Shown here piece by piece: positions 22,533 through 54,931 of a DNA stretch of 64,000 bases; within the stretch, counting starts at the first letter, position 1, and the number at the start of each line of letters is the position of its first letter. This stretch comes from an uncultured Planctomycetales bacterium. GTDB taxonomy: Bacteria > Omnitrophota > Gorgyraeia > Zapsychrales > Fredricksoniimonadaceae. A program made the position numbers and the translations under genes. The notes below the pieces were generated by a model, which was not told the origin of the DNA, did no database searches, and worked only from the letters and a program-made list of their open reading frames with translations. The DNA lies in assembly GCA_964572155.1 (NCBI GenBank), contig CAZNDZ010000001.1, positions 79,300 through 143,299 of the forward strand, in the 5' to 3' direction.

Positions 22533-24656
22533 CTAATCCTTTCGCTTCATTGCGGTTAAATATTGTCCTTGTGCATACGGGGCATAATTCTGCCTGATAT
22601 AGCTTACAATTGTCAATATGTTTGCATTGCTCTCCTTATAAGACGCTGGGTACACATCTTGCAAGAATACATTCTCGATAAAAACATAAGTTGGACGTTG
22701 ATCTGCCAATTGCGCTATGGTGTCTTTTAGAAAACTTGGGCTATGAGCGGCATCGGCTGGAAAATATCGAACACGCATGGGTTGTGAGGTCACCAGCGGC
22801 GTATGGTAAAAAAATGGGGCGCGCTTGGCTTGGATTAAAATCTTCGTCTCAAAACTGCTTAACAGCGCAACGCGTTCGTTAGAGCCAATTAAATCCGTAA
22901 TGAGTTTTGCATCTTTGGTAAAATCACTTTCTTGCTCGATAAAGCGGATCAATTGTTGATCATTTTTAAAACTGTCTTCCGTGGCTAAATGCTCATCCTG
23001 ATCACCGGCCGCATTCAACAATACCTTGTCTTCTTCTTTAATATGTTTGACCAAGTGATGGAAATAACCCTGCCGGTCTGGAAAACGCTGGGCTACCTTG
23101 ATGTCCGTCATTGGGTTCGCACTAAAATTAAAAACATTAGGATAACTGATGTAATTATGATTGGTAACTAAGGCATATAAAGCCAAGATTAGACAAGCCC
23201 ATTGCACTTTTTTCACATCGGCTGATTTTAATTGTTTTAAAATAATATGTACCCAAAACGCACATATCAAAACAAACGGAACAGCACTTAAATAATAGCT
23301 GGTCATCGCTGAACGCACGACAAAGTATTGATAATTAACCAAGCCATAGACGGCAATAACAACGCATAAGAAATATTTTCGGTCAATTTTCTTATGCCAC
23401 ATTAAAATAGAAAGCGTTAAAACTGTTGCCACATACAATAACGGCATGGCAAGTGCGATTAAACCCACCCAAAAATTACGATACTTTAAACTTTCAAACA
23501 TGGGTAAGGCCCCACGGCCAGTAGCAAAATAGCTCATATATTCAATGCAGTTCTTCCAGAATAGAGAACTAAATACATGCGCGCCCAATGTCATCCAGAA
23601 AAAGATAAAAGCAACCACCAGCGGTAATATGGCCACCCATAGGTGTTGTTTCTTTAAGTGGCCAAGTAAGAAAGCGCCCGCCATATAAAAATACAGGGTC
23701 ATAATGATGCAAATACCCGACGATGTCATATAATAAACAGCAAAACCGCTATAGGCAGCAGCGAGTATTAAAAATAAAATTCTGCCTGTTTGCAAATGTC
23801 GCCACAAAAACCATAACCAGACGATATCAAGGCCAAACCGGATGGGCGTTGAGGATGGGTAAATCCAACATAACGGGCTTACCCCATAATGAAACATTTG
23901 AAGACGAAACACCACCAAGAACGCCGCGAACGCTAGGATTGCACTGCCAAGCCAGACACGGGTAAAGCAATAAAAAAGGATAAAGTATAAAATGCCAAAT
24001 GCAACATTCATGCGTAAGAATGGCAAATAATCAAAACCACCGAATAGCACGCATAACTTAGACAATAAAACAGGTATGCCCACCCCATATTGGGAGATCA
24101 CATCCACATAAGGCAGCCCACCATAAACAGACGAAACACCTGGGGCCATTAAAAAGAAATCTAAGTGATGGGCTTGCTCGCCTATAAATATTTCAGCTAA
24201 GACGGCTTTTAAATTTGGGACATAAACAAATGCGGCGATCAACACACAGGCAATCCATGTTTGCCAAGGCGATAATGCTACATAGGCTTTTAAGACGTGC
24301 GTTTTAAGCTTAGGCATTTCTTGCCAAAATAATTTTAAGATGATGGCTAAGCCCAATAAAGACAACGTTGCTTTACTGGCAAGCCATGGGCTATTGTCAT
24401 AAATCGTGGCTTTAAAAACAGCGCTGACTAATAAAAATGTCACCACAGCCTCAAGGCCAACATACCACGCAGGCTTCTGGTCTTGGATCAATAAATAGAC
24501 TAAAACGGATGATGCAATAAAAACAACATACAAAATCGCATCATATGCATTTGAGGGCGTATTAAGTGCGCTTAATGCTTGGGCCATTAAGACCGTAACT
24601 TGAACGCTAAAGCATAATGCTAAAAAACTTCTGACGATTTTTTGTTTATCAACCAT
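22533..24656 (-). CDS. family-A large polytopic membrane protein (copy A1) with conserved C-terminal soluble domain; putative GT-C-like glycosyltransferase
   Basis: 707 aa; at least 12 TM; motifs ILKLFWQEMPK, GEQAHHLDFF...VISQYGVG, MFHYGVSPLCW, YPNVFNFSANPMTD, VALLSSFETKILIQAKRAPFFYHTP, YVFIENVFL, YAPYAQGQYLTAMKRK. Confidence 0.7.
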   Translation of the reverse strand: MVDKQKIVRSFLALCFSVQVTVLMAQALSALNTPSNAYDAILYVVFIASSVLVYLLIQDQKPAWYVGLEAVVTFLLVSAVFKATIYDNSPWLASKATLSLLGLAIILKLFWQEMPKLKTHVLKAYVALSPWQTWIACVLIAAFVYVPNLKAVLAEIFIGEQAHHLDFFLMAPGVSSVYGGLPYVDVISQYGVGIPVLLSKLCVLFGGFDYLPFLRMNVAFGILYFILFYCFTRVWLGSAILAFAAFLVVFRLQMFHYGVSPLCWIYPSSTPIRFGLDIVWLWFLWRHLQTGRILFLILAAAYSGFAVYYMTSSGICIIMTLYFYMAGAFLLGHLKKQHLWVAILPLVVAFIFFWMTLGAHVFSSLFWKNCIEYMSYFATGRGALPMFESLKYRNFWVGLIALAMPLLYVATVLTLSILMWHKKIDRKYFLCVVIAVYGLVNYQYFVVRSAMTSYYLSAVPFVLICAFWVHIILKQLKSADVKKVQWACLILALYALVTNHNYISYPNVFNFSANPMTDIKVAQRFPDRQGYFHHLVKHIKEEDKVLLNAAGDQDEHLATEDSFKNDQQLIRFIEQESDFTKDAKLITDLIGSNERVALLSSFETKILIQAKRAPFFYHTPLVTSQPMRVRYFPADAAHSPSFLKDTIAQLADQRPTYVFIENVFLQDVYPASYKESNANILTIVSYIRQNYAPYAQGQYLTAMKRKD

Positions 24657-25890
24657 GGCTCATCCAAAAATGTGGGTACGTCACCCAAACCCTGCTTGTG
24701 AGTAGCGCCAACACGGCCAATAGCACACACGCCGCATAAATGAACCTTGCTTGTGCCTTAAAAAATTTCTGTGTGCAGGCGTGTAACCACCATGCACTTA
24801 ATATGACCGCAGGCCAACATACAGCGCCATAAGCAAAAACGTTCGCATGCCCAATGTATCGGGTATAAATCAATAACCCATAAATGCTTAATATCGTGGC
24901 TATCCTATGCTTCCCCCACGCATTTAATAACGTAAAGACATAAAAGATAACTAACGCATAGCCCATGAAAAATGAAAAGAATTGTCGCACGCGTAATGCC
25001 GCAAACATCGGCAAATGCGTGGGATCTTTATAGAAACCAAAATCCCCCCACACATTGATCAACGTGTTTTGGGGATAGTTCCAGCACAGCGGAGACATGC
25101 CATAATGAAACAATGTCATGCGTATGACCACCACAACAACGAGCACAGATAACCACAGGTTTTGACACAAACGCTTCGTTATAACAAAAATGCCGATGAT
25201 AAGAATCACATTGATATAAAACAAAAACAATACAATTTGCTGCGCACTAAAACCTCTGGAAATTAAAAAGTTGGTCAACCCAAAAGCACGCCACTCTGAA
25301 AAATTACTCCATTGCGCAATGATCGACGTGCTCATCTCCACATTAGGATATAACCCAATCAAAACAACAGCAAAGAAACCCCCATAAACCAACCACGTAA
25401 ATTGTTTGGGCAAAACAGCATGTTGCCATGCTTGAAATAATTTCTTCGTCACCTTATCCACTTCTGGCCAGAATATCTTGCTAAGCAAACTCAGTGCAAC
25501 AACCCCATAGAAGAATGGATAAACCCATCGATTATTTTCTAGCGACAAGATGTTATAAAACGGGTATTGATAGGTAATCCATTTAAAAAACGTGAACAAC
25601 ATCAACACCAACCACATCACTTCTATCCACAAAAATTTCCAGCATTTCTTTAATAAAACCTCATCATCCAATCGTTTAAAAATAAACGCCGCGCCAAGCC
25701 CCAACACAAACGTCGTCGATAAAAATACCATGTAAAAAAAGCTTTCCCGTTCTGGTTCAAGCCCTGCCAACGCTGGGCCTTTGACGATGATGGGAATATA
25801 ACTATAAACATGAGCCACCATGCATAATAGTTGCAAGGCCTCAACGATCACAAGCGCTGTCAAAATTCCAATCGCCCTTGGATTAAACAT
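24649..25890 (-). CDS. family-A paralog truncated after the membrane domain (413 aa, no C-terminal soluble domain)
   Basis: PERESFFY, SKIFWPEVDKV and LFHYGMSPLCWNYPQNT motifs align to A-family N-terminal and TM regions; ends at the YP(H/N)FW junction; 8-nt overlap with A1 start. Confidence 0.6.
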   Translation of the reverse strand: MFNPRAIGILTALVIVEALQLLCMVAHVYSYIPIIVKGPALAGLEPERESFFYMVFLSTTFVLGLGAAFIFKRLDDEVLLKKCWKFLWIEVMWLVLMLFTFFKWITYQYPFYNILSLENNRWVYPFFYGVVALSLLSKIFWPEVDKVTKKLFQAWQHAVLPKQFTWLVYGGFFAVVLIGLYPNVEMSTSIIAQWSNFSEWRAFGLTNFLISRGFSAQQIVLFLFYINVILIIGIFVITKRLCQNLWLSVLVVVVVIRMTLFHYGMSPLCWNYPQNTLINVWGDFGFYKDPTHLPMFAALRVRQFFSFFMGYALVIFYVFTLLNAWGKHRIATILSIYGLLIYTRYIGHANVFAYGAVCWPAVILSAWWLHACTQKFFKAQARFIYAACVLLAVLALLTSRVWVTYPHFWMSHG

Positions 25891-27649
25891 TCGGCTTCCT
25901 TTTCATGGCTACTAAATATTTACCCTGAGATACAGGGGTATAGTAATACTTCACATAACGGATCACACGGATTAAATCTTCAAACTCTTCAAAATACCAC
26001 GGATGCACTTGCTCGGTTAAAAACACCGCTTCCATGAAAATATATTTAGGCTTAGCTTGATCCAGCTGGCTAATGATGCGCTCAATTTGCGGATAACTAA
26101 AAACCGTTGTGACCACAAAATTACGCATGCGCATGGGGTGCGAATTAAGCAACGGGAAAAAATAAAACAATGGTTTACGCTTTGCTTTAGATAAAATCAT
26201 CACTTCAAAACTGCTTAGCAACGCAACACGTTCATCGCTTTTTGTTAATGAAGCAATCATCCCTGCGTCTTCCTTAAAAGCTGTTTCCAAGCGGTAATGT
26301 GACTTTAATGCATCATGATTAACAAAATCCCTTTCGTATTTAAACTTCTCATCGACTTCACCCAAAGAATTAACTGGCACTTTAATCCAATCAGGAAAAT
26401 CAACAGCGAGCTGACCAAAATATGGTTTGCCTCCTGGGATTTTCATCGATACAGCGGGATCAACAACAGGATTCTTAGATGTATTGAGCAAATTCGGATA
26501 TGCCCGAAACATCGGTTCACTAATTAAAGCATAAATAGAAACGGCTAAGAGAATGCCTGTGATGCGAAACTGCCAAACCTGTGATTTTCTTTTAATGAAC
26601 TCATCTATGACTAAAATGGTGATAAACGTCATGGGCAAAGACACGGTTGAATATTTATGTGACATGCCAACAAAATACGTAAATGTGCCCAACCCATAAG
26701 CAGCCAACAAGACGATCCATATATCCCTTGCTGTCCGCTGTGGTGTTAAATATCGCCACCCATAAAAAAATGCACTGGCGCAGTATGCAACTGGAATTAA
26801 CAAGCCGACAATGACCATCCAATAATTACCCCGCGCGATGGGTGCTAGCATCGGACTATAAAAGAATCCTTTTGCAAAGTATGAAGCAAAACCTGCGGTG
26901 TTCTGCCAGAACAGCGACGTAAAGATATACGCGCCTACAACGCAATAATATAGGAATAGTACAACAATCGGGATAAAAATAACCGGACGTGAAAGACCAA
27001 TCGTGTGCAGCAACCCTTGCCACCCTTGTTTGATGATCGCATCTAGTGCCTTCATTCCTAAATAAACAATCATCGTAGAGAATAAAAATATCCCCATGGT
27101 CGGCATATGAAAAATGCCAAGCGCCACGGACAAAGCCATGAGCCACAGATAACGCGGCTTTTGATGCTTTTCATACAAAAACAAACTCCAGAAAAATAAC
27201 GCATCAAAATAAAATCGCAATACGGAACATTGAATGTCATTCCAAACAATGGGGATTAAGATTGAGACAAACATTTGAAAGCGCATGCCTAAGATAATGG
27301 CCGTTAAAGCTAAGATGGGATGATACAAAATCCTGCGTAATAAATAATACCATGCAATGAAATATCCAATGCCAAGCCAAAATAGAACAATGAGCGCATG
27401 GGTATAATCAAAACCCCCTATGATTTGCATCCCCCATTTGATCAGCAGGCTCAGACCAAAACCATAGGTCGTGTTAATATCAATATTAGGAACTAAGTCA
27501 CAGAACAATCCATAAATGGGCCCCATAAAGACCACATCCCAATCATGAAAAAAATCCCCCATGAACAATTGAGCAACTGTTGCCGTCGGATCAGGAATAA
27601 ATAAAATCAAAAATATAATGATCACTGCAGTTACATCTAACCAAAGCAT
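25883..27649 (-). CDS. family-A membrane protein (copy A2), C-terminal 588-aa portion of an apparently frameshift-split gene
   Basis: FMGDFFHDWDVVFMGP, YPNLLNTSKNPVVD, VALLSSFEVMILSKAKRKPLFYFFP, YIFMEAVFL, YTPVSQGKYLVAMKRK. Confidence 0.65.
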   Translation of the reverse strand: MLWLDVTAVIIIFLILFIPDPTATVAQLFMGDFFHDWDVVFMGPIYGLFCDLVPNIDINTTYGFGLSLLIKWGMQIIGGFDYTHALIVLFWLGIGYFIAWYYLLRRILYHPILALTAIILGMRFQMFVSILIPIVWNDIQCSVLRFYFDALFFWSLFLYEKHQKPRYLWLMALSVALGIFHMPTMGIFLFSTMIVYLGMKALDAIIKQGWQGLLHTIGLSRPVIFIPIVVLFLYYCVVGAYIFTSLFWQNTAGFASYFAKGFFYSPMLAPIARGNYWMVIVGLLIPVAYCASAFFYGWRYLTPQRTARDIWIVLLAAYGLGTFTYFVGMSHKYSTVSLPMTFITILVIDEFIKRKSQVWQFRITGILLAVSIYALISEPMFRAYPNLLNTSKNPVVDPAVSMKIPGGKPYFGQLAVDFPDWIKVPVNSLGEVDEKFKYERDFVNHDALKSHYRLETAFKEDAGMIASLTKSDERVALLSSFEVMILSKAKRKPLFYFFPLLNSHPMRMRNFVVTTVFSYPQIERIISQLDQAKPKYIFMEAVFLTEQVHPWYFEEFEDLIRVIRYVKYYYTPVSQGKYLVAMKRKPNV

Positions 27650-30488: not shown

Positions 30489-31900
30489 TTTCTCACCGCC
30501 ACCGCAACCAAGGTTGTTCCAAAAGGCATGGGGATTTTACCGTATAGAAAAACTTCTGCTTTAAGCAATGTTGTCATAAAACCATTGAATCCGGATACTG
30601 GATTCAAATACATATCAGTCGACGGTGACGCATCACGCGCGAATATCTTGTGCAATATACGCACGATGGCAACAGGAAGAAATGGCAGGCAGAATAAATA
30701 ATTTAACTGCTTGATCTCAAACCCTGCTTCTTCTAATAATGTCCTCACATCCCGTGGATTATATCTGCGCAAATGCGACAAAGCCTCATCATGGGGCCCA
30801 AATAAAAAACGGCACGCCGGTACTGTTATGATCAGTTGTCCATTTTCTTTGAGTGTATCTTTTAACTGACGAACCACCGCCCAAGGATTACGTGTGTGTT
30901 CAATGACATCTAATGACAAGACAACATCAAATGTATTGGCTTTAAATGGCAATTGATCTAAATTCCCACGCACCAAGCTTGTATGCCCATTGGCTTGACA
31001 AAACTTTAATGCCTGCGACGAGACATCAAGACCAACATATGGACCTTGGGCGCCTAAAAAACGCATATTATGCCCTGTCCCACAACCCGCATCTAACACC
31101 AATGGGTTTTTAACGTTAACGCATTGTTGTAAAATCTTTCGCATAAAAGCCGCCTTGGTCACAAACCACCAATGATGACTTTCATTCTCATACATCTGGG
31201 CAACATCTTTATCTGACATGTGCTCGTCCTGAGTATTAATCTTTGGAAAATGCCAGATGCGAATACATAAAACATCCCAAAACATTTTAAAATTCATGCT
31301 CAACTGTTTTCGCCTAGAACCATCAACCGTAATAACCTTGGTCTTATAACCTAACTGATAACTAACATAAGCCCATTCCACATCAAAACCATCATCCTCT
31401 AAATAAATACGCCCTAATAATCCCCCTAAATCTTTTTGCCGGATAATACGAAACATGCATGGCAAGAAACATAATTTATCAGCCAAACATGCAGCAACCC
31501 ATCGATCAAAAGCTTTATGTGGCACAACACTTGCCTTAACCCCCAAAACAACTTCTTTAGTATTATCAAATTTATCGACGCATGACAGCACATCGCTTAA
31601 GGACACGTTCAAATCTTCGATAACAACAAGAACACGACCCTTCGCATCAAACAATCCACGTTTAATAGCCGCGGCCCGTCCTAATCCTTTTGGTATTTCA
31701 AGGATACGTCCCGACTTAGGTTGTGTTGCTTTTGCATCATTGACGACAAAAACAATCTCATCACCACCATTCTTTTCACAGAGATCAACGAGTTGCTTAA
31801 TAATTGGTGCTTGCGCTTCAATGATGTTTAATAGAGGAACAATGAAGGAGCGCTCGATCTGCTTATTCATGCGCCCACCTATATAATTTTCGAAAGACAA
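30485..31900 (-). CDS. fusion protein: GT2-like glycosyltransferase N-domain plus class I SAM-dependent methyltransferase C-domain
   Basis: 471 aa; N-half IVFVVNDAKATQ...VVIEDL...DGFDVEW; C-half LDAGCGTGHNMRFL...FDVVLSLDVIEH. Confidence 0.5.
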   Translation of the reverse strand: MSFENYIGGRMNKQIERSFIVPLLNIIEAQAPIIKQLVDLCEKNGGDEIVFVVNDAKATQPKSGRILEIPKGLGRAAAIKRGLFDAKGRVLVVIEDLNVSLSDVLSCVDKFDNTKEVVLGVKASVVPHKAFDRWVAACLADKLCFLPCMFRIIRQKDLGGLLGRIYLEDDGFDVEWAYVSYQLGYKTKVITVDGSRRKQLSMNFKMFWDVLCIRIWHFPKINTQDEHMSDKDVAQMYENESHHWWFVTKAAFMRKILQQCVNVKNPLVLDAGCGTGHNMRFLGAQGPYVGLDVSSQALKFCQANGHTSLVRGNLDQLPFKANTFDVVLSLDVIEHTRNPWAVVRQLKDTLKENGQLIITVPACRFLFGPHDEALSHLRRYNPRDVRTLLEEAGFEIKQLNYLFCLPFLPVAIVRILHKIFARDASPSTDMYLNPVSGFNGFMTTLLKAEVFLYGKIPMPFGTTLVAVAVRK

Positions 31901-34460
31901 TGAACATGGCTATTAACGCCGCTATGACAGCAACAACAATCAAAATTCTTAAAGGACTATCTGGCCAATAAGTTAATAGAATTTGATGCTCACCCGCCTT
32001 TAATGGGGCACCGATAAAATAACCATTAATCTTTGAGATCGGCGTTCTTACCCCGTCAATGGTTAACTGCCACTTCGGATCATATGGCATATGCATGACC
32101 CACCAACCATCACGTTTGACTTGATAGGTAAATCCAAATTCATCTTGAGTGTTACGCCAAACATCGAGCAAAGCTTCTGGGGTGTCAACGCGCAACGACA
32201 ATGAATCCTGTTTGATGGGCGATGTTGCTGGCATTAAAACTGTTAAATATCCATCACGAACATTATTAACATCAAATGTAAACGGCGCAACCAAAGCCCC
32301 TTGTGCAGGGATTAAGGGTTGAGCGCCAATAGAGAGTTGCCATAGCTGAACATCGGGTGTAAATACTGTGGTTGATAGGTACCTTGGAAAGTCATCCGGC
32401 AGCGCCCACTGATATTCAATGTTTTTTTCTTTCTTTTGCATCTTAGCCAGATTTAACGAGAACATATATTCATTGCGTTTAAAATTCACTGGCAATGGCG
32501 CTGGTAAAATTAAACCATTGAAGTTTTTAACTTTATCTAAATTTTCCCCTTCTGCTTGAACAATCCGACGATCCAAATTTCCCGATAAGATTGTTGCAAA
32601 GTGATCTTGATTAGGCAAGATTGCTGCATCAGCCATAAACATGATCCGCCCATCTCTTCGGATGTATTGTTGAATATGCTTATCCTTGTTAATATCCTTA
32701 AACACTTTTAAACGTGGCACATAAATAGACGTGTCTCGCTCTAGGCGTAACACCAGCGGCATGTACTGATAAAACTGTCCGAACATGCCTTGGAACTCAA
32801 CGAGCAATGGGAATACCACCTGATCGTCTGTTCGATAAAAGAAGCGCACTGGCAAGATCCTAGGATTCTGATAATCTAAGATCATAGGTACGGGCGGTGT
32901 ATACATCGGGCTAAAAACACGGGGCTTAACCCGCAACCCATCCCAATAGGCACCATTCATGTCGACGCTGGGGGTATTGATGTATTGTTTAAGCACACTA
33001 AATTCAACCGCCATCACCATGGTAAACAATGCCAAGGCCAACCACACCCTCAAAGCAGCTTTGATTTGTTTGAGATCAAAGAGTATGAAGAATATAAAAA
33101 ATATAACTAACACCTTCATTGCATATACTTTCACCAAAGGATTGGCAATGTAGGCACAAGCAATGATAAGACTGCCTAAAACTCCCTTAATGAAATTGAT
33201 GCGTTTGGCGTAAATTTTGGTCGTATCTTTTTTAATGATGGCGATGCATGCATTGATCCCAAGACACACCGGAACAGCGAGCGTCAAATACCACAACAAT
33301 ACGGCATAGTGAAAACTGCGCACTAAAAAACAAAATGGATTGGTCAACGCATCTAGCCAATGCGCCCACATCATCCATCCCCCTTGATTCGAGGGTACAT
33401 TTAAAAAAGCCATCATGATGGCTGCTGTGATAAAAATTGGCTTATAAGGATGTTTTCCTAATATTAGACCAATCGCCGATAAAACCATGATGGTAATTCC
33501 TAAAAATATCCCGCTTAAGTACCAACCGCTTGTCGTAAAATCAACCGCATGTGAAAAGACTTGCTGGCTGGAGACAAAGTAACGCAATGGGTCGTGCATC
33601 ATCGCATGTGGATTATAAATGCGGCTAAAACGGCCTTCCGATCCCCCCAAACCTGTCCCCACCATCTCAAAATCACTTATCACATTTGTACCCCACCATA
33701 TCACGGGTAGAAAGATCAAGATCGCGACTAAACACGCCTGCGAAACTTTTAACCAATTGACCTTATCTTTCACCAAAGGCTTTTGCCGTCTCTGGAAAAT
33801 AAGCCAAATCATCAACATATCAAATAAAAATAAATGCACTGTCTGATAAAAGAAGCCTAGCCCAACATACAGTGCGTTGTTTGCTGCAAATAAAAACACC
33901 AAGATAGATGCGATGACCGCTTTAAATGATCGTGTGTCCCAGAAATAAACCAAACAAAACATTAAAAGTGGTAAATAATTGTAGACAGATGAAATACATA
34001 AACCGCCTAAATGGATCATGGCTATAGCGCAAAAACAATTGACCAAGATTGTTGTGATCAATGCAGTCAAACGTGATTTTGTCATATACCGCGTTAAAAG
34101 ATAAATCCCAAATGTCCGCAAGATTAAACCCAGACCATGGAATGCTAATAAATACCAGTGATGAAAGAACTGGGCAGGATCTTTTACAAACGGAGACAAA
34201 ACAACATACCCGAGAGCAATCACAAAATTAAACGGCGTATACAGTCCGACGGATAATTGGGCATATGATCCATTTAGTAAATCGTATCGATTAAACAGCT
34301 GGATATTGCCTTGATAAAACTGGCCAATTAAATAAAACACATATTGCATGGGGCCACAGGTTTCATGCCCTTGCACCAAACGCATGTCAAGCTTTGTAAA
34401 AAGCTCCGGATAGAGACATGCTGCAATAATAAGATTAATAACAATGCTTAAAAACAACAC
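31863..34460 (-). CDS. family-B large membrane protein (copy B1), tentatively YfhO-like GT-C glycosyltransferase
   Basis: 865 aa; N-terminal LYPELF...FYQGNIQLFNRYD, multi-TM core, C-terminal PYDPKWQLTIDGVRTPISKINGYFIGAPLKAGEHQILLTYWPDSPLRIL plus final TM helix. Confidence 0.6.
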   Translation of the reverse strand: MLFLSIVINLIIAACLYPELFTKLDMRLVQGHETCGPMQYVFYLIGQFYQGNIQLFNRYDLLNGSYAQLSVGLYTPFNFVIALGYVVLSPFVKDPAQFFHHWYLLAFHGLGLILRTFGIYLLTRYMTKSRLTALITTILVNCFCAIAMIHLGGLCISSVYNYLPLLMFCLVYFWDTRSFKAVIASILVFLFAANNALYVGLGFFYQTVHLFLFDMLMIWLIFQRRQKPLVKDKVNWLKVSQACLVAILIFLPVIWWGTNVISDFEMVGTGLGGSEGRFSRIYNPHAMMHDPLRYFVSSQQVFSHAVDFTTSGWYLSGIFLGITIMVLSAIGLILGKHPYKPIFITAAIMMAFLNVPSNQGGWMMWAHWLDALTNPFCFLVRSFHYAVLLWYLTLAVPVCLGINACIAIIKKDTTKIYAKRINFIKGVLGSLIIACAYIANPLVKVYAMKVLVIFFIFFILFDLKQIKAALRVWLALALFTMVMAVEFSVLKQYINTPSVDMNGAYWDGLRVKPRVFSPMYTPPVPMILDYQNPRILPVRFFYRTDDQVVFPLLVEFQGMFGQFYQYMPLVLRLERDTSIYVPRLKVFKDINKDKHIQQYIRRDGRIMFMADAAILPNQDHFATILSGNLDRRIVQAEGENLDKVKNFNGLILPAPLPVNFKRNEYMFSLNLAKMQKKEKNIEYQWALPDDFPRYLSTTVFTPDVQLWQLSIGAQPLIPAQGALVAPFTFDVNNVRDGYLTVLMPATSPIKQDSLSLRVDTPEALLDVWRNTQDEFGFTYQVKRDGWWVMHMPYDPKWQLTIDGVRTPISKINGYFIGAPLKAGEHQILLTYWPDSPLRILIVVAVIAALIAMFIVFRKLYRWAHE

Positions 34461-36679
34461 TATGTGCTCCCCTTTAATTTATAGGCAACCAAATATTTTC
34501 CTTGTGCAACAGGCTCATAGTTTTGAAAAACAAAATCCGTTACATACAACATGCTTGAATAATAAAAGTAGAACTGCTCTGAGAGTGGCCGCATGGTTAG
34601 AACGCGCTCAACAAAAACATACTGTGGCTTATCTTTCGACAATCGCTCAATGACTTTGTTTAATTGATCAATGGTATAAATACTGCTGCGCACCAATGTC
34701 CTTGATCGCAAAGGATGCGAAATCGCTAATGGGAAATAATAAAAATACGGACGCCGTTTGGCATCCATCAACATTTTAATTTCAAAACTACTAATCAATG
34801 CAACAGGCTCTTGAGGCCCAGTCAAACGGTCGATCAAATCAGCATCAACACCAAAATCTGATTCAGCTTTGTAATATAACAACAACGCGTCATCCGAGGT
34901 AAAATTACCTTCCTCAACAATGGCTTCATTGTTGTCTCCAAGAGAGTTAACAGGGACTTTCAACGCTTCATTATAACCGCGATATAAATGATTAAAATAC
35001 GGATCCCCACTGCTTAATGGTTGAGCAAATTGAACATCGGTCAAAGGATTACGTGTAAGGCTTAAACGATTTGGATAGGCAATAAAATTTTGATTCAGCA
35101 CAAGTAAAGCGATGCTCAATGACAACACAATGACATGAAACAACCGTCGCTGATAGCAACTGGCCCCAAACATAAGGATCATGACAAACGGCAAGGATAC
35201 GACGTAGTAGCTCGACGGACCTGAACGGGCTACATAGTAGTGATACACACACAACCCATAAACACCGATAACACAGGCAAAGATATGTCGCTGACTGATC
35301 TTCTTTAAAACTATGAGTGTCCCAACGACTAAAAGTGCCAATACATAGACAGCAGGCAAAACAAAGCCCATGAGACTGGCCAAGAATTGCCGGTCTTGTA
35401 AACCGCTGTAGATCGGCGTTAATCCAAAGCCGTTTAAGAAATACGCAACAAATTCTGAGGTGTTATTCCAAAATTGTTTTGTTGCTACGACTGGACCAAT
35501 AAAAATAAACATGCATACAATCATGACAATAGGCGGCACCATCAACACACCTAAATAGGCAATGCGTCGCATCAGGCCATTGTGCCATACCCAATAAAAA
35601 AGATAGAAAGTAAACATGGCAAGCAAATAAACACCATCGGATGGGATATAAAACAATTGCAAGCCGCATGCAACAGCGCCCATGATCAACCAACCCACAG
35701 AAGGACGATAGATATGCACTAAAATGGATATCATGACAAAGATATCAAACCAGTTGCGTAAGACAGTGGCGCTGCCATACGTAAATGCAAACGGGTAAAC
35801 GCCTGCATTAAACAATTGAAATTTTAAAACCAAGAATACACCCGCGGCAGCTAGAATCGTGCTCTTTAACCACGCACGCATGAGAAAGAACCAAAGGGTG
35901 TAATAGATGATCGCCCCCCATATCATCATTTGTAATCCGCTTTCATAGGTGAACCCACCAAAAAGCTGACCAAGGCTTCCAAATATAGCCCCCACCCCAA
36001 CCCCATACTGACTAATGATATCCCAATCAAGCCGGCTTCCGCTCACATAAGCCCACGCTGGCCCATAAATAAAACTATCATTATGATGGAATTGCTCTCC
36101 GACAAAGAACCGCGCCACCACGCCAGGTAAATTAGGAACATCGATGATCAAAAAAATAATGATCGGCATGACAAGCATTAAGGCTCGATCTAAAAAGACT
36201 TCGTTGTCTTTATCCTTACAAAAATGGCTGAGGGCATCAAGACAACGCTGTGCCCATGGCCATAATGCCTTGATTATGAAAGCTACAACACTTAAAAGAA
36301 GCAAAGCTCTCTTAGCTAGTTCAGGATGCGCGGCATAAACACTGATTTTAAAACAAGCTCCCAGCATTGCTACAGTGAGTAATCCTTCTATAACAATATA
36401 TCGCCGGATAGACGTAACTTTATTAACCCAAAAATACCAAAAGATCGCACTGGCAATCGTGCTTAAGATAAAGCATCGATATAACAATGTTTCCCATTCT
36501 GGACGTAATAATGACAGCCATTCGGGGACAATGGTTGCACTCAATGCCAAATGAGGCGTCTGCGCTGATAAGACCTGCGCTAAAATAATGGTCAGCTGAA
36601 TGCCGCACATCAAACTTAGCACAACCATTTGGATATAATCTTTATGCTTGTTCACGACGATACCCTTCCCAGAATACAT
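34460..36679 (-). CDS. family-A large polytopic membrane protein (copy A4)
   Basis: 739 aa; LRPEWETLLYR, IKALWPWAQRC, GEQFHHNDSF...IISQYGVG, YPNRLSLTRNPLTD, VALISSFEIKMLMDAKRRPYFYYFP, YVFVERVL, YEPVAQGKYLVAYK. Confidence 0.7.
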   Translation of the reverse strand: MYSGKGIVVNKHKDYIQMVVLSLMCGIQLTIILAQVLSAQTPHLALSATIVPEWLSLLRPEWETLLYRCFILSTIASAIFWYFWVNKVTSIRRYIVIEGLLTVAMLGACFKISVYAAHPELAKRALLLLSVVAFIIKALWPWAQRCLDALSHFCKDKDNEVFLDRALMLVMPIIIFLIIDVPNLPGVVARFFVGEQFHHNDSFIYGPAWAYVSGSRLDWDIISQYGVGVGAIFGSLGQLFGGFTYESGLQMMIWGAIIYYTLWFFLMRAWLKSTILAAAGVFLVLKFQLFNAGVYPFAFTYGSATVLRNWFDIFVMISILVHIYRPSVGWLIMGAVACGLQLFYIPSDGVYLLAMFTFYLFYWVWHNGLMRRIAYLGVLMVPPIVMIVCMFIFIGPVVATKQFWNNTSEFVAYFLNGFGLTPIYSGLQDRQFLASLMGFVLPAVYVLALLVVGTLIVLKKISQRHIFACVIGVYGLCVYHYYVARSGPSSYYVVSLPFVMILMFGASCYQRRLFHVIVLSLSIALLVLNQNFIAYPNRLSLTRNPLTDVQFAQPLSSGDPYFNHLYRGYNEALKVPVNSLGDNNEAIVEEGNFTSDDALLLYYKAESDFGVDADLIDRLTGPQEPVALISSFEIKMLMDAKRRPYFYYFPLAISHPLRSRTLVRSSIYTIDQLNKVIERLSKDKPQYVFVERVLTMRPLSEQFYFYYSSMLYVTDFVFQNYEPVAQGKYLVAYKLKGST

Positions 36680-39215: not shown

Positions 39216-41224
39216 GAACCTATCCTTTTATAAGCGATCAAATATGTCCCCACCTTAAAAGGCATGTAATGTTGGCTGATGTGCTTAACTAATCCTGTCA
39301 ATGCGCTTTGGCCTTGTTGCTGTAACTCTTTCTTCTCAATGAAAATATACTGAGGTTTTTCTTTCTCAATTTGCGCGATGGTTTTCCTTAATCGGTCATA
39401 GGTATGTAAATACGTTAAACGCGCTTGAGGATTATCCATTAGCGACGATTCAATCAACGGTGAATAATAAAAGAATGGCGGACGATTGGCTTGCATGAGG
39501 ATTTTTGTTTCAAAACTACTGATGATAGCGATGCGTTCATTGGGCTTAGTCAGCACAGCAATAAAGGCGGCATCATCTTTAAAATCAAAACGTTGTTGAT
39601 AATAACCAACCTCTTCCTGCCATTTAAGGCCACTTAAATTCAAAATGTTGGGATAATAGGTAAATAAATAGCTCGTCATCAATATAGGCAACATGATGAT
39701 GGCCGCAAGCTTCCTAACATACTGTGGCAGAATTTCTTTAAGCCAAAGACATAAAATTAAAACAAGTGGGATGCAGACAGCGTAATAACTTGTCACACCC
39801 GAGCGATGAATAAAATAATGATATAAGCCCAAACCATATAGGCTTAAAAACAACGTGAAGTACTGCTTACGTAAAAAGCTGTACACCATATTGCCGGCAT
39901 AAAAAATGGGGATCATAAAGCCGATGATAAACGCAAAATATTGTTTTTCTTTAAGCCCCTCCGTCATAGGCAATGCGCCCCAACCTTGCACAAATAAACC
40001 TGCGAACTCAAATTGATGCTGCCAAAAGCTAGGTGTCAACACTGCGTGTGGTTGTAGGATCGCCAGAAAACAAAATGCTAAAAATAAAATCGCAGGAACA
40101 ACAATAAAGACTTTCTTCCATTGGGTTAGCAACAAATACGCGCCTAATGCTGCCATCAGGTAAACCCCAACATCAATCATCCAACATAAAGACAAAGCCA
40201 CTGAAACAACGCTCATATAAAACCATCGGCGCTGTTGTGTTTGTAAATATTGCCAAAATGCAAAAAAGAATATCACATCTGGCAAGTGACGCAAAGCCGT
40301 CGCACTAGGGTATTGCCAAACAAGCGGAGCTACTCCCCAATGAAACAACTGCAACTTAATGGCCAATAATGTTCCAAAAACCGCAACCGCTCTTGACCCC
40401 AACCAAAACACTATAAAAAAATACAGAGCCGCATAATACGCAAGATTAAGACCAATCAACAACGTTACAGCCCCTTGATAATTAAATTGATGCAGTAAAT
40501 TAAGGATGTTCGACAAGACAATAGGAAGGCCGACGCTATATTGACTGGTGATATCACTGTTTAACACTAGGTGCTTTAAATGCGCCCACCCTGGGGTCAT
40601 GAGCATGCTATCTAAATGATAGAATTGATCGTGCACAAACATACGGCCAAGAACACGATCCATTTGAAATGGAAATAACAACACAACCATCCCTACAAGA
40701 AATGCAAAATCCCAAGCCATAGGAAACGTTACGGATGCAAATGATACTCGACGCTCCCATAATTTAAGCATCACCTTCTCAATCTCTGGCCAAAAAATAT
40801 GAGCAAACACCGTCGCTATCATTACCCCATACATCATAACCACCGCCCATAACGGCGCGCCCCATACAAGGACTTTAAACACAAAAAAGATCTGCACAAA
40901 TATGCAACATCCGCTAAAAATGATGTAATTGATATAGCGTCGCCATAAACCTTCTTGGTCTATGTGATTGCGCAGATGCCTAACCCATAGGAACATCACC
41001 GCCATCGCTATGATCACAAAAAGCCTAAACAATAGCATTTCTCTCTCAGGGCGAACCTCTGGCAAATAAACAGGAAAAATTTTCGCGACAAAATCTGTTT
41101 TCTTGTAGGGAATGAATTGAATGGTCGCAGCAATGAAGATAAGGCATTGCAGGGCCTGCAAAAAGCTCATTGCAGCCAACGTCACAACATTAAGAAAGCC
41201 AAGTTCTTTGAAAATTTTCTTCAT
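39212..41224 (-). CDS. family-A large polytopic membrane protein (copy A5)
   Basis: 670 aa; LPEVRPEREMLLFR, AHIFWPEIEKV, HDQFYHLDSM...ITSQYSVG, LFHWGVAPLVWQYPSAT, IAIISSFETKILMQANRPPFFYYSP, YIFIEKKEL, YMPFKVGTYLIAYKR. Confidence 0.7.
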   Translation of the reverse strand: MKKIFKELGFLNVVTLAAMSFLQALQCLIFIAATIQFIPYKKTDFVAKIFPVYLPEVRPEREMLLFRLFVIIAMAVMFLWVRHLRNHIDQEGLWRRYINYIIFSGCCIFVQIFFVFKVLVWGAPLWAVVMMYGVMIATVFAHIFWPEIEKVMLKLWERRVSFASVTFPMAWDFAFLVGMVVLLFPFQMDRVLGRMFVHDQFYHLDSMLMTPGWAHLKHLVLNSDITSQYSVGLPIVLSNILNLLHQFNYQGAVTLLIGLNLAYYAALYFFIVFWLGSRAVAVFGTLLAIKLQLFHWGVAPLVWQYPSATALRHLPDVIFFFAFWQYLQTQQRRWFYMSVVSVALSLCWMIDVGVYLMAALGAYLLLTQWKKVFIVVPAILFLAFCFLAILQPHAVLTPSFWQHQFEFAGLFVQGWGALPMTEGLKEKQYFAFIIGFMIPIFYAGNMVYSFLRKQYFTLFLSLYGLGLYHYFIHRSGVTSYYAVCIPLVLILCLWLKEILPQYVRKLAAIIMLPILMTSYLFTYYPNILNLSGLKWQEEVGYYQQRFDFKDDAAFIAVLTKPNERIAIISSFETKILMQANRPPFFYYSPLIESSLMDNPQARLTYLHTYDRLRKTIAQIEKEKPQYIFIEKKELQQQGQSALTGLVKHISQHYMPFKVGTYLIAYKRIGS

Positions 41225-42552: not shown

Positions 42553-42875
42553 AGGGTAAAATATATGAACAATGTCATCTTAGTAAAAAAAGCTGCAACA
42601 TCACGGCAAGAGCCAATCTTACTCTCCTGCCACTGACGCAATTGTTTTTGTCGACGGGTAAGATCTTGATTTTCAAAGAAAGAAGCCGCACCAAATACGC
42701 CAGACCAATTAAAAACATAAATCACCATGATCATAAGCGTCCGCAATAAGGTCGGCATGCCCATGATCTTGCGGTATAATTTCTCTGCGGTTTGAACAAC
42801 GATGTGATGTTCTAAATCGCTGACATAGGCGGGACACAAAATGCCTTGTACAATACAGAAAATGATCTTATCCAA
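42534..42875 (-). CDS. small hypothetical membrane protein
   Basis: 113 aa; one or two hydrophobic segments; sits between the GMC gene and B3 with overlaps typical of coupling. Confidence 0.3.
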   Translation of the reverse strand: MDKIIFCIVQGILCPAYVSDLEHHIVVQTAEKLYRKIMGMPTLLRTLMIMVIYVFNWSGVFGAASFFENQDLTRRQKQLRQWQESKIGSCRDVAAFFTKMTLFIYFTLCPKKN

Positions 42876-49804: not shown

Positions 49805-50575
49805 TTAAACTTTAAATGGCTTTTGAAAATACACGGCGCTACGATCAACGCGAATTAATGTGATCTTGTCCTCTAAACCTTGCTCTTTAATAAAATCGGT
49901 GAGCGCTGCCTTGCATCCTTGATGAAACCAATAATCATCAACGACAACATATCCTCCAGGAACGACCTTAGGATAAAGATAATCTAGGGGAGCCTTGACG
50001 CAATCATACCAATCGGTATCAATGTGCAATAAAGCAATCGCCTCTGGTAATTCTTGCTTTAAGGTGGTGTCGAGCCAGCCTTTGACGACATGAACATCGT
50101 CAAAACTAAGATGGAGTTTACGGAAAATGTCTTTCACGTTATTCAATCCACCTTTACAAAACCCCACGAAGTAGCATTCTTGCTCACCTTTACTGTCCTT
50201 CTCCGTCGGTGGTGGCAAACCTTCAAATGAGTCATACAACCAAATCTTGCGTTTGATTTTTTTGCCTGCATCTGCGTAACTGCGTGCAATCATGGCCGAC
50301 GCTCCGCCATTCCAAGTACCACACTCAACAATGTCGCCTTTAGTCCCCGACACTTCGATTTGCTTCGTCAAACGATATAAATTAAGCAAACGCGTGGTCG
50401 AGAGCATGGAATAAAATGGTTTGATCCGTAAAATACAGCCGTATAAACGCAACAATGAACGCGAGGGCTTTTGAATAAAAATGATAGGCATTTCAAGTAA
50501 GGACAACATCAATGACATGGACTTACCAAAAAAATAGTCTTGGGTGAGTACTTTTAAATAATTAATTTTGAACAT
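49805..50575 (-). CDS. TylF/MycF-family (macrocin-O-methyltransferase-like) SAM-dependent O-methyltransferase; start uncertain (ORF to 50713)
   Basis: LYDSFEGLPPP and ECGTWNGG motifs typical of the TylF family. Confidence 0.6.
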   Translation of the reverse strand: MFKINYLKVLTQDYFFGKSMSLMLSLLEMPIIFIQKPSRSLLRLYGCILRIKPFYSMLSTTRLLNLYRLTKQIEVSGTKGDIVECGTWNGGASAMIARSYADAGKKIKRKIWLYDSFEGLPPPTEKDSKGEQECYFVGFCKGGLNNVKDIFRKLHLSFDDVHVVKGWLDTTLKQELPEAIALLHIDTDWYDCVKAPLDYLYPKVVPGGYVVVDDYWFHQGCKAALTDFIKEQGLEDKITLIRVDRSAVYFQKPFKV

Positions 50576-51284
50576 GTGCTTTTTTGTCTCCTCCCAAATA
50601 AACATCTTGGTATAAATCCCAGACCGCCACAAACGCCGCTTTAATGCTCTTAAAACGCAAGGCGCTTGATTTTCCTTTTTGACGATGCACGTGAATGAAA
50701 GGAATCTCAACACAGCTGTGACCTTGTCGCATCATCTTGACCTTACATTCTGCGAGCACGGTTAAACCTGTTGAATTGATTTTCAATGCTTGCAATATTT
50801 CCCGTCGAGCAATGAAAGGTCCATTGAAATATTTCATCCTAAGCCCAAATAGAATATTCATCAATAATGTAAAGAATCCAGAAAGAGCTCGACGTAAGAT
50901 TGGGCGATCATGGGTATTGCTTGTATAAGGAGAAATAATGTCGGCGCGTTCTATATTGACTATCAAATCACGAAAAGATTCCCATGACATATCATTATCC
51001 GACGTATACACCCCAACATAATCTTTGGTGGCAAGTTTTACACCACGTTGATAGGAATAGCCGTAGCCACGATTAACCTCATTGGAAACACAGCGTATGC
51101 GCTGATCTTTGGCGGCGCGTTGTGCGGCGATCTTAGGGGTATCATCCTGACTTCCATCGTCGATGACAATGATTTCAAGATCACTAACCAAACCATCGAC
51201 GGCGCGTAAAACATTATCGATGGCTTCGTTTAAATTCTCTTGTTCATTAAAGGCGGGCAAAAGTACGGTTAAAGATATCTTCAT
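50562..51284 (-). CDS. GT2 glycosyltransferase, polyprenol-phosphate sugar synthase-like
   Basis: 240 aa; LTVLLPAFNEQENL...IVIDDGSQDDT...DNDM; DPM1/ArnC-like. Confidence 0.7.
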   Translation of the reverse strand: MKISLTVLLPAFNEQENLNEAIDNVLRAVDGLVSDLEIIVIDDGSQDDTPKIAAQRAAKDQRIRCVSNEVNRGYGYSYQRGVKLATKDYVGVYTSDNDMSWESFRDLIVNIERADIISPYTSNTHDRPILRRALSGFFTLLMNILFGLRMKYFNGPFIARREILQALKINSTGLTVLAECKVKMMRQGHSCVEIPFIHVHRQKGKSSALRFKSIKAAFVAVWDLYQDVYLGGDKKAHVQN

Positions 51285-51811: not shown

Positions 51812-51812
51812 A

Positions 51813-53010: not shown

Positions 53011-53068
53011 ATTACCCTTTCTTGGTTGGTGATCTAATAAAGATATAATAAAGGACGGTGTGGTTAAA

Positions 53069-54931
53069 TCAAGGATTTTTGCGCTTTAAAGCAATCAGAT
53101 ACTTACCCTCTGCAACAGGCTCATAGTGCTGATGAAAGTATGATATTAGGATCATAAGCGTCTGAAAATGCTCATAATAGGGCGCGGGCAATCCGGAATA
53201 AAGTTTTTTCTCAACAAAGGCATACTCTAAGCGGGTTTGGTCTAATTCAGCCAACGTATGCTGCATCCGCTCCTTGGTCCAAAGCACGCTACCTCTAAAT
53301 TGCAGCACATCTAATTGATCGGTATAAATCACAGCAAAGAAGTAAAAGAAAGGCTTACGCTTAGCCTCCATTAGGATCTTAACTTCGCGACCTGAAACCA
53401 AAATCACCCGTTCTTCTGGTTTGGTCAGCTGTTGAATCAAGGCAATGTCTTGGGATATGTCAGGTTCTGCAGGCACCACATTGTTCTTTTTAGCAGCAAA
53501 ATTCCAAATGCCTGGGTAATCCCGCACCAAAGGATTTAAAACCAAGAGCAGACAAACACCAACCGCAACACTGGCCCACGCGATGCGTGACATTAACACA
53601 GATAGTCGCCCTATACCCAACGCGATCACATAGATGATAATGGCAACCAAAGGCAAACAAACCGCAGCATAGCTCGTCGGCGCTGAACGCACCACATAAT
53701 AGTGATACAACCCTAAACCATACACCGATAACACGCAAATAAAAATATGTTCCCAATCCAATTTCTTTAAGAAGCATGAAGTCGCAAAAAATATTAGCGC
53801 AAGCACATAAAGGATTGGTACGGCTAAGCTAAGAGCAAATGCAATATATTGATGCGCGTCTAAGGAATAAGTCATGGGCAAGGCGCCAAAACCTGATAAA
53901 AATAATCCTGCAAATTCAAAGGTGTTATACCAAAACGCCTTTTGAAAAATCGCTGGGCCTTGGATGATCCACAGGATCAAAAAAGCTACTAGAAATGGCA
54001 ACGCTAATACAGCCGCCATCAAACCAGACGCATTCAACCACTGTTTGCGTTGTTGATATACATAAAACACCCCATATGTTGCGAGTGATAACCACAAATA
54101 AACACCTGCATCCAACGTCCAAACCAAGGCAAGCCCAACGCCCACGGACGCCAACCACAGATAAATGCTCTTGCCTGTTCGTAAATGCGCTAATAGCGCA
54201 AGTAAAATGGGAATGTCCCACCAAAATCGAATAACGGTGGCACTAGGAAATTGCCAGACGAGCGGAAAAACACCTGGATGAAACATTTGAACACTGATGC
54301 CTGCAAAAACGCCGATCAAAGCCGCGATGCGTAAATGCATCCAAATACGTAAGAACAGATAAAACATGCAAAAATAAATAGCCCCCAAGGACATTTCAAA
54401 TGACAGGATGCCAAGATAATTAAAATGCTTGAGCGCATTTAATATATTGGCTGCAATGACAGGAATTAAAATGCTGTATTCGCTAATCTGATCAACATTG
54501 AGTTTTAAACCACCAATGACAGCCAAGCCTGGGGATGTGAAAAAACTATCGACGTGAAAACACCTATCCGTGATGCGCGCAAATACCGCTTGAGATGATG
54601 GGACAAAAATAAAAAAGAAGACAATAAAACACACAACCGCATCAATGACATTAAAACGAATATCTTTTTTAGGCGAAGCTTGATTAACCCCGTGTGAAAA
54701 ATGGGGTTTAAATATAAAAAACCCTATCACTTGAGCAATGATGCCTGCGACAACAAAAATGCGGAAGAATAAAACCTCACGTTCAGGCTTAAAATCACTG
54801 AGCCATTCCCCAAAAACACCGACGGATAAATCTAAAGCAATGGGATGAAAACTAAAATACCAAATCGCAAGCCCCGTGACAAGGGACGCCACCGTGACGC
54901 TACATAACGACAACAGGATGATTGGAAGCAT
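53069..54931 (-). CDS. family-A large polytopic membrane protein (copy A6)
   Basis: 620 aa; FKPEREVLFFR, DRCFHVDSFF...QISEYS, MFHPGVFPLVWQFPSAT, YPGIWNFAAKKNNVVP, VILVSGREVKILMEAKRKPFFYFFA, YAFVEKKL, YEPVAEGKYLIALKRK. Confidence 0.7.
   Translation of the reverse strand: MLPIILLSLCSVTVASLVTGLAIWYFSFHPIALDLSVGVFGEWLSDFKPEREVLFFRIFVVAGIIAQVIGFFIFKPHFSHGVNQASPKKDIRFNVIDAVVCFIVFFFIFVPSSQAVFARITDRCFHVDSFFTSPGLAVIGGLKLNVDQISEYSILIPVIAANILNALKHFNYLGILSFEMSLGAIYFCMFYLFLRIWMHLRIAALIGVFAGISVQMFHPGVFPLVWQFPSATVIRFWWDIPILLALLAHLRTGKSIYLWLASVGVGLALVWTLDAGVYLWLSLATYGVFYVYQQRKQWLNASGLMAAVLALPFLVAFLILWIIQGPAIFQKAFWYNTFEFAGLFLSGFGALPMTYSLDAHQYIAFALSLAVPILYVLALIFFATSCFLKKLDWEHIFICVLSVYGLGLYHYYVVRSAPTSYAAVCLPLVAIIIYVIALGIGRLSVLMSRIAWASVAVGVCLLLVLNPLVRDYPGIWNFAAKKNNVVPAEPDISQDIALIQQLTKPEERVILVSGREVKILMEAKRKPFFYFFAVIYTDQLDVLQFRGSVLWTKERMQHTLAELDQTRLEYAFVEKKLYSGLPAPYYEHFQTLMILISYFHQHYEPVAEGKYLIALKRKNP

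Follow-up and report, generated by a model that had tools for sequence, protein, structure and literature searches.

An unnamed family of putative GT-C membrane proteins in tandem arrays with YfhO paralogs in uncultured Omnitrophota-type bacteria

We describe family A, an unnamed family of large membrane proteins of probable GT-C type that is encoded in tandem within a 64,000-nucleotide stretch of DNA (the window). We think it likely that six catalytically equipped family-A paralogs and three YfhO-type enzymes jointly assemble a surface glycan, or decorate one, on the outer side of the inner membrane. GT-C enzymes elsewhere act in protein N- and O-glycosylation, in the making of GPI anchors and mycobacterial cell walls, and in lipid A modification.

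A family-A HMM matches exactly eight open reading frames (ORFs) in the window and none besides, all on the minus strand (Table 1). Copies that contain both the core and the C-terminal domain (C-domain) match one another in BLASTP with E values of 1e-51 to 1e-125, and pairs that include the 154-aa or 413-aa ORF match much more weakly (7e-6 to 1e-12), yet far beyond chance. These matches bear out the paralogous family that an earlier, sequence-only reading had placed here, but its count of six full-length copies has to be revised: the eight ORFs form seven units, comprising five uninterrupted full-length genes, one split pair and one short paralog. They occupy 14 kb of the window, or 22 kb with the YfhO genes added. 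The same reading had taken low to moderate identity as a sign of old paralogs, which broadly agrees with the 24–36% identity among paralogs compared with 45–74% among orthologs. The 707-aa copy carries the motifs GEQAHHLD, VISQYGVG and ALLSSFE..AKRAPFFY and has a 67% identical ortholog in related locus L039, and the 670-aa copy has one of 60% identity in L002. Hydropathy and alignment place two additional helices between the N-terminal module (N-module) and the core of the 796-aa copy, whose 825-aa ortholog is 55% identical. The N-module of the 620-aa copy is cut down to two helices and is without the KIFWPE motif; no ortholog of more than 36% identity was found for this copy among the seven related loci used for comparison (L001, L002, L004, L008, L012, L026 and L039).

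Table 1. Features of the window, with domain and functional assignments as predicted.
Feature	Coordinates	Strand	Evidence
Small GT2, 248 aa, second candidate polyprenyl-phosphate sugar synthase	21435..22181	+	PF00535
Family-A gene, 707 aa, full length: 4-helix N-module, GT-C core, C-domain	22533..24656	-	HMM 836 bits
Short family-A paralog, 413 aa; N-module (KIFWPE) and part of core kept	24649..25890	-	HMM 123 bits
Split family-A gene, core and C-domain ORF, 588 aa; variant loop motif GDFFHDWD	25883..27649	-	HMM 717 bits
Split family-A gene, 4-helix N-module as its own ORF, 154 aa	27637..28101	-	HMM 50 bits
Family-A gene, 796 aa	28098..30488	-	HMM 808 bits; hydropathy, alignment
YfhO-like GT-C paralog, 865 aa, interleaved with family A	31863..34460	-	PF09586, E 3.5e-12, C-terminal stretch only
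Family-A gene, 739 aa, copy used for the structure model	34460..36679	-	
C-terminal alpha/beta domain (residues 536-739) of the 739-aa copy, starting at the YPN junction	34463..35074	-	
First-loop motif GEQFHHND (residues 194-201) of the 739-aa copy	36077..36100	-	Translation
YfhO-like GT-C paralog, 857 aa, interleaved with family A	36642..39215	-	PF09586, E 1.5e-9
Family-A gene, 670 aa; short linker from YPN to C-domain	39212..41224	-	HMM 671 bits
YfhO-like GT-C paralog, 833 aa	42868..45369	-	PF09586, E 1.6e-14; weak NCBIfam match to PgfM1
Small GT2, 240 aa, candidate polyprenyl-phosphate sugar synthase	50562..51284	-	PF00535
Family-A gene, 620 aa, apart from the main array	53069..54931	-	HMM 641 bits

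Searches of Pfam gave no real match for any of the eight window ORFs at E values up to 1 and no match for 66 diverse family-A relatives. Neither set matched the PMT, PMT_2 or ArnT-like families (PF02366, PF13231; GT39/GT83), no copy matched YfhO (PF09586) at E values up to 1, and neither the WWDxG motif nor a profile match to STT3/PglB/AglB (PF02516; GT66) was present in family A. NCBIfam 20.0 (E up to 0.1) returned zero families for seven of the ORFs, the 154-aa N-module ORF being left out, and a profile search of PDB sequences yielded nothing below an E value of 1, noise only. A second, word-indexed homolog search using a diverse alignment (E up to 1) recovered only unannotated family members and two marginal unnamed matches. 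An exact-sequence look-up of the 739-aa protein found no record, the cluster members of ten distant relatives are named solely 'hypothetical protein [Candidatus Omnitrophota bacterium]', and a literature search on Omnitrophota and glycosyltransferases turned up nothing about family A. Alignment of a 42-sequence family-A profile to the three co-resident YfhO paralogs with hhalign gave a probability of 3.6%, and the two families are thus not detectably related by sequence. Judged by its sequence, family A is a previously unnamed family, in line with the sequence-only reading, which could not place its signature, and no known family, glycosyltransferase or other, was matched in Pfam, NCBIfam or the PDB profile search.

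The GT-C membrane domain has about 7–13 transmembrane helices (PMC11127046), and the helix count of family A conforms to this: hydropathy identifies 9–14 segments per copy (leaving out the 154-aa N-module ORF, which has 4), and an AF2 model of the 739-aa copy consists of an 11-helix core and 4 N-terminal helices. The modelled core resembles solved GT-C enzymes in three dimensions, and the loop after core transmembrane helix 1 (residues 180–244) includes helices at 184–194 and 198–212, both as expected of a GT-C member. Short loops predicted to be cytoplasmic contain a mean of 0.8–3.7 Lys plus Arg residues (at least 1.9 in five of the six) and those predicted to be periplasmic 0–1.0, a bias from which the first core loop and the C-domain are predicted to lie outside; N-module variants have 2, 4 or 6 helices, differing by even numbers. 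We predict that a full-length family-A protein is composed of a variable N-module, an 11-helix GT-C core and a periplasmic alpha/beta domain of ~200 aa, and that the periplasmic first core loop has two juxtamembrane helices, a conserved [E/D]xx[H/Y]HxD motif and a further Asp residue. The structural case draws throughout on one predicted model, and D201, D220, R308 and D312 are known from sequence conservation. Large polytopic proteins in a glycan locus with no recognisable flippase or polymerase could instead be transporters, flippases or Wzy/WaaL/SEDS-type polymerases or ligases that resemble GT-C proteins superficially, and the finding of no sequence similarity to GT families would fit such a role. 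However, fold searches with the model favour GT-C and lead us to reject the transporter and polymerase readings, and we regard this explanation as extremely improbable. Membership of family A in the GT-C fold superfamily, a resemblance raised in the sequence-only reading, is supported by the predicted fold, the loop conservation and the charge-based topology.

The first-loop, LFH.G..P..W.YP and YPN junction motifs, and the C-terminal motifs SSFE..L..A.R.PFFY, Y.F.E and Y.P...G.YL.A.KR, are present in the family as originally described and are conserved across 201 relatives. Other parts of that description require correction. The N-terminal motif, attributed to every copy, occurs as K(I/L)F(W/Y)(P/Q/S)E in the others but is absent from the copy at 53069, and in the split gene it sits in the separate 154-aa ORF; its distance from the first-loop motif is ~55 aa (~130 aa in the 796-aa copy) rather than ~25 aa. 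Nor does the 413-aa copy share the full architecture, with alignment gaps in place of the acidic first-loop motif and the C-domain. Among the 201 relatives the loop residues are conserved at 94% (E/D195), 91% (H199), 90% (D201) and 90% (D220), and residues elsewhere at 98% (R308), 95% (D312), 99% (D612), 99% (R642) and 100% (Y721). We propose that GEQFHHND of the 739-aa copy is a catalytic or metal site.

The split and short copies had been described as two degraded genes, but both are intact in related genomes. The 154-aa ORF ends ...KIFYSEINRCFG with a 13-nt overlap with the next ATG, and is 45% identical to a 157-aa ORF of L039 that has the same ...FG end residue; the 588-aa ORF is 74% identical to a 594-aa ORF of L039, making it the best-conserved copy. 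Orthologs of the 413-aa paralog are of like length (L039, 415 aa, 53% identity; L026, 403 aa, 41%). Because these ORFs are intact in related genomes and the split falls at the same site, the copies are maintained genes and not decay products, and a pseudogene reading is ruled out. Its missing motif and domain suggest that the 413-aa paralog is probably non-catalytic. Family A offers natural cases of a GT-C protein split in two and of a GT-C paralog that is conserved although catalytically stripped.

Family A counts ~1,300 hits in all and ~400 representatives (50% clustering, E ≤1e-30), and each of the related genome loci recovered comes from a MAG that bears the label Candidatus Omnitrophota or 'uncultured Planctomycetales'. 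The tandem arrangement alongside YfhO genes is seen again in 40 related loci, with up to seven or eight family-A ORFs and YfhO genes usually present; the strict alternation of the two in the window is lost in more distant genomes, and individual paralogs are kept as a syntenic set across genomes. If the YfhO enzymes were the sole catalysts, family A could provide GT-C-fold lipid-binding or scaffold subunits similar to PIG-U/GAB1. We consider this very unlikely, as the full-length copies retain the loop acidic and His residues, with R308 and D312, at 90–98% in the 201 sequences in the pattern of an active site, and the ratio of family A to YfhO reaches 7:1 in related loci, some of which have family A but no YfhO.

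The nearest solved relatives of the 240-aa GT2 are dolichol-P-mannose synthase (5mlz, 1.3e-12) and ArnC, and those of the 248-aa GT2 are the GtrB-type sll0501 (5ekp, 2.2e-13), ArnC and DPMS. Against nine putative GT-C catalysts, there are just these two clear lipid-sugar synthases. In a 471-aa methyltransferase fusion, the N-terminal 218 aa looked GT2-like by eye, but this candidate was dropped when phmmer against the PDB came back empty. No GT-B, phosphoglycosyltransferase, Wzx/Wzy/WaaL or ABC-exporter domains were found in the 54 ORFs scanned, and no recognisable flippase was found at the locus.

A three-component logic of lipid-sugar synthase, flippase and GT-C enzyme is established in bacterial periplasmic glycosylation (PMC11127046). 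Family, predicted fold, residue conservation, charge-based topology and synteny were computed here, and we infer the donor, the acceptor, the roles of catalytic residues and the division of labour. The DPMS/GtrB/ArnC-like GT2 enzymes would make a polyprenyl-phosphate-linked sugar at the cytoplasmic face, which would then be flipped across the membrane. The lipid-linked sugar may sit in a membrane-embedded groove where the near-invariant R308 (and K286) would grip its phosphate; the Asp, Glu and His residues of the loop would either activate the hydroxyl of the acceptor or bind a metal, and the C-domain, with invariant D612, R642 and Y721, may place the acceptor. What sets the six catalytically equipped paralogs apart is most likely their donor, acceptor or linkage, and they may add different residues in turn to one glycan, as the sequence-only reading suggested. 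The 413-aa paralog, lacking loop motif and C-domain, is probably a non-catalytic partner. Methyltransferases, oxidoreductases and an amidotransferase presumably act beside the GT-C enzymes on the surface glycan or glycoconjugate.

Alternatively, the GT-C transferases could be independent decorators, each adding one sugar, possibly from one or two shared donors, to a different acceptor, either separate surface proteins or separate sites on a polymer that is synthesised elsewhere, on the model of the Gtr* serotype-converting enzymes, PMT isoforms and streptococcal PgfM1. This is possible but rather unlikely: the paralogs form one co-directional, overlapping gene string together with sugar-modifying enzymes, they are conserved with synteny as a set across genomes, and the window contains no backbone-synthesis machinery to decorate for. 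A bolder version of joint glycan assembly, which we put forward tentatively and think improbable, is a lineage-specific coat of surface glycan or glycoprotein built wholly in the periplasm by about ten GT-C enzymes of two unrelated sequence families, with the catalytically dead paralog and the detachable 4-helix module as fixed members of a multi-enzyme complex. If so, cytoplasmic GT-B assembly, a phosphoglycosyltransferase, Wzx/Wzy and ABC export would play no part in Omnitrophota-type coat building, which would parallel, in these bacteria, ER-lumen or mycobacterial arabinan assembly, and the family-A C-domain would be a new acceptor-recognition fold.

Family A escapes Pfam and NCBIfam; once it is named, a set of hypothetical proteins becomes a pathway that can be tested, with D201, D220, R308, D312, D612, R642 and Y721 as concrete targets for mutation. 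In all 40 of the 40 loci recovered it belongs to uncultured Omnitrophota-type bacteria. New GT-C sequence families are still being founded, such as GT136 in 2024 (PMC11127046).

The closest known systems differ from family A in several respects. Unlike the protein O-mannosyltransferases Pmt1/2/4 (GT39, GT-C), family A is bacterial, lacks a MIR domain and any Pfam PMT or PMT_2 match, and has an extra 2–6-helix N-terminal module and a C-terminal alpha/beta domain that are absent from PMTs. ArnT (GT83), the undecaprenyl-phosphate-L-Ara4N:lipid A transferase, is single-copy with a defined lipid A acceptor, whereas family A is without sequence similarity to it, has an added N-module and another loop motif, and is found as arrays that reach seven or eight members. 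STT3/AglB/PglB (GT66) use pyrophosphate-linked oligosaccharide donors, whereas the family-A locus context points to monophosphate sugars. The mycobacterial Emb/Aft arabinosyltransferases (GT53, GT85, GT89 and others) belong to other sequence families, another phylum and another envelope; Emb and AftD bear carbohydrate-binding modules, and no PRPP-type donor synthase was seen at the family-A locus. PIG-U/GAB1, a non-catalytic GT-C-fold component of the GPI transamidase, is eukaryotic and of GT-C(B) type, unlike bacterial family A. YfhO enzymes (PF09586), which work with CsbB/GtrB-type synthases to glycosylate LTA/WTA and proteins (e.g. PgfM1), are also GT-C members of three-component systems (PMC5836110, PMC11127046, PMC12041528); three of them are interleaved with family A, but the two families have no profile similarity (hhalign, 3.6%) and their C-terminal domains are not alike.

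Exactly eight ORFs in the window match the family-A HMM, and like every other gene from about 22 to 60 kb they lie on the minus strand. Copies with both the membrane core and the C-domain share 24-36% identity pairwise (BLASTP, E 1e-51 to 1e-125), and pairs that involve the 154-aa or 413-aa ORF are far weaker. The sequence-only reading had correctly recognized a paralogous family and its motifs, which are found in the window copies, but its count of six full-length, one truncated and one split copy becomes five uninterrupted full-length genes, one split in two ORFs and one short, making seven units spread over eight ORFs. The K(I/L)F(W/Y)xE motif, described for each copy, is missing from the copy starting at 53069 and in the split gene sits in the separate 154-aa ORF, and the loop motif lies about 55 rather than 25 residues beyond it. 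The 413-aa copy is indeed shortened through lack of the C-domain, but contrary to the shared architecture it also lacks the loop motif.

Coordinates of family-A genes and other features in the window
Feature	Length (aa)	Coordinates	Strand	Basis or remark
ORF6N-domain protein		4316-4912	minus	E 2e-34
Small GT2		21435-22181		closest solved proteins: polyprenyl-phosphate sugar makers
Family-A ORF	707	22533-24656	minus	family HMM
Family-A short paralog	413	24649-25890	minus	family HMM
Family-A split gene, core part	588	25883-27649	minus	family HMM
Family-A split gene, N-module part	154	27637-28101	minus	family HMM
Family-A ORF	796	28098-30488	minus	family HMM
Methyltransferase-domain protein	471	30485-31900	minus	class I domain, residues 250-400
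YfhO-like GT-C	865	31863-34460	minus	
Family-A ORF	739	34460-36679	minus	family HMM
YfhO-like GT-C	857	36642-39215	minus	
Family-A ORF	670	39212-41224	minus	family HMM
YfhO-like GT-C	833	42868-45369	minus	
Small GT2		50562-51284		closest solved proteins: polyprenyl-phosphate sugar makers
Unannotated ORF	190	51281-51853	minus	no Pfam match
Unannotated ORF	171	51813-52328	minus	no Pfam match
Family-A ORF	620	53069-54931	minus	family HMM

Within the libraries searched the family is unrecognized, as had been proposed: none of the eight ORFs has a real match in Pfam-A (E up to 1), none of the seven scanned matches NCBIfam (E up to 0.1), Pfam is likewise negative for 66 diverse relatives, and a profile search over all PDB sequences returns noise only. 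Among 1.84 billion representative proteins, a 42-sequence profile picks out 1,328 at E <= 1e-3 and 405 at E <= 1e-30, and all named relatives are labelled 'hypothetical protein'. Six relatives (P0073, P0100, P0110, P0112, P0149 and P0173) measure 930-1,170 aa, of which 250-450 are additional N-terminal residues matching the profile in further stretches that may be duplicated or fused N-modules; Pfam finds no domain in P0073, P0100, P0110, P0149 or P0173.

AlphaFold2, given the 739-aa copy and the 42-sequence alignment, yields a confident model (pLDDT 90.7, pTM 0.90) with four N-terminal helices, a core helix (157-179), a 65-residue loop holding two short helices (184-194 and 198-212), ten further core helices and, after the YPN junction, an alpha/beta domain. 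The first 32 Foldseek matches are all GT-C proteins, the best being ArnT (E 6e-6). Membership of a non-glycosyltransferase family such as a transporter, or a lack of GT-C features, would have spoken against the proposed GT-C fold; neither is seen by HMM, AlphaFold2 or Foldseek, where transporters appear with a probability below 0.1 only, and family A very probably has this fold. The C-domain is a weak echo of periplasmic domains in other GT-C enzymes, not a member of them, and lacks the WWDxG motif that oligosaccharyltransferases carry.

In the 42-sequence alignment, predicted-cytoplasmic short loops average 0.8-3.7 Lys+Arg (at least 1.9 in five of six) and predicted-periplasmic ones 0-1.0. 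By the positive-inside rule this bias places the N-terminus in the cytoplasm and the first core loop and C-domain in the periplasm, a layout that is the GT-C arrangement (PMC11127046). The N-module usually has four helices, with two in the 53069 copy and six in the 28098 copy, and the split gene encodes it as an ORF of its own; because it varies by even numbers only, topology is preserved.

Among 201 family-A proteins aligned to the HMM (numbering of the 739-aa copy), the first loop is conserved at position 195 (acidic in 94%), H199 (91%), D201 (90%), D220 (90%, plus 5% Glu) and Y225 (94%), the periplasmic end of the next helices at R308 (98%) and D312 (95%), and the C-domain at D612, R642 and F689 (99% each), Y721 (100%) and G727 (98%). 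Such conservation is what an active site together with another functional surface would show. The first-loop acids and histidine would form a putative catalytic or metal site, R308 with K286 would bind the lipid phosphate, and the C-domain may hold the acceptor. Family-A proteins are probably active periplasmic transferases that use polyprenyl-phosphate sugars.

The nearest solved proteins to both GT2 genes are dolichol-phosphate mannose synthase, the GtrB-type sll0501 and ArnC, all of which make polyprenyl-phosphate sugars. The same gene string encodes four methyltransferases, three SDRs, a GMC oxidoreductase, an FAD amine-oxidase-like protein, an AsnB-type amidotransferase and an MBOAT with a DUF1574 partner. 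The glycosyltransferase genes of the locus are GT-C genes and the two small GT2 genes only; across 54 scanned ORFs there is no match to a GT-B, phosphoglycosyltransferase, Wzx, Wzy, WaaL or ABC exporter, and no flippase can be named among the locus genes. This gene set at 22-60 kb suggests either that assembly takes place wholly outside the membrane or that other DNA encodes the backbone. Directly upstream of the DPMS-like GT2 are the overlapping 190-aa and 171-aa ORFs, each combining hydrophobic helices with a soluble tail; they are positional candidates only for a lipid-sugar flippase or regulator.

Three YfhO-like genes, 31-33% identical to one another, alternate with those of family A, overlapping by 1-38 nt, and profile comparison finds no similarity to family A. 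Their Pfam YfhO match covers only the last ~65 profile positions; because the membrane parts are unmatched, the three may form a divergent subfamily related to YfhO. The 471-aa protein has an unassigned ~230-aa N-terminal part that looks GT2-like by eye (phmmer against PDB is negative), and a 467-aa ortholog occupies the corresponding position in L001, the syntenic genome. At 56514-63228, beside the glycan genes, an FkbM-type methyltransferase, a 561-aa protein (weak HAD match), a DUF1574 protein, an MBOAT O-acyltransferase (plus) and a MaoC dehydratase-SDR fusion (plus) form a possible acyl-modification module. Housekeeping genes flank the glycan locus, which is therefore chromosomal; the ORF6N-domain protein (phage antirepressor-type) among them may be a mobile-element remnant. 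ORFs of 321, 406 and 415 aa at 13275-16859 have no significant Pfam match, with weak hints of MauE (E 1e-3) and thrombospondin type 1 repeat (E 2.5e-3).

Scanning 185,579 species genomes with three family-specific peptide patterns, and thus with a bias to close relatives, recovered 40 family-A loci, all in metagenome-assembled genomes that carry the label Candidatus Omnitrophota or 'uncultured Planctomycetales' (third-party assemblies). In these loci as many as seven or eight family-A ORFs stand in tandem, usually with YfhO-like genes among them, and one genome (contig CAZFNI010000007) is syntenic with the window. Relative to L001 and L039, two related loci, there is a local rearrangement: AsnB and GMC genes flank the 833-aa YfhO gene in the window, whereas in the syntenic genome its counterpart lies between an 825-aa family-A gene and a 157-aa N-module ORF, and a 113-aa ORF stands at the window's position.

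For seven of the eight ORFs, related genomes contain an ortholog that is 45-74% identical, the exception being the 53069 copy (best match about 35% in seven loci compared). Because these values far exceed those between paralogs, the duplications are old, as had been surmised, and the copies individually maintained. The split and short copies, earlier taken as degraded, are not so, since each has an ortholog: that of the 154-aa ORF is 157 aa long (45%, with the same ...FG end), the 588-aa core is the most conserved of all copies (74%), and for the 413-aa paralog two genomes encode full-length orthologs, 415 aa (53%) and 403 aa (41%) long. The paralogs may form one sequential assembly line, and a set of independent decorating enzymes is only somewhat less likely.

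Family A matters because it explains 14 kb of the window's hypothetical genes, appears restricted to one lineage and heavily expanded there, and supplies naturally occurring GT-C forms that are split or catalytically stripped. It is a new sequence family and an architectural variant inside the known GT-C superfamily, not a new kind of system. The gene context fits extracytoplasmic glycosylation from lipid-monophosphate sugars, in which a synthase, a flippase and a GT-C enzyme act as three components (PMC11127046, PMC5836110); compared with such systems, this locus is expanded to about nine putative catalysts.
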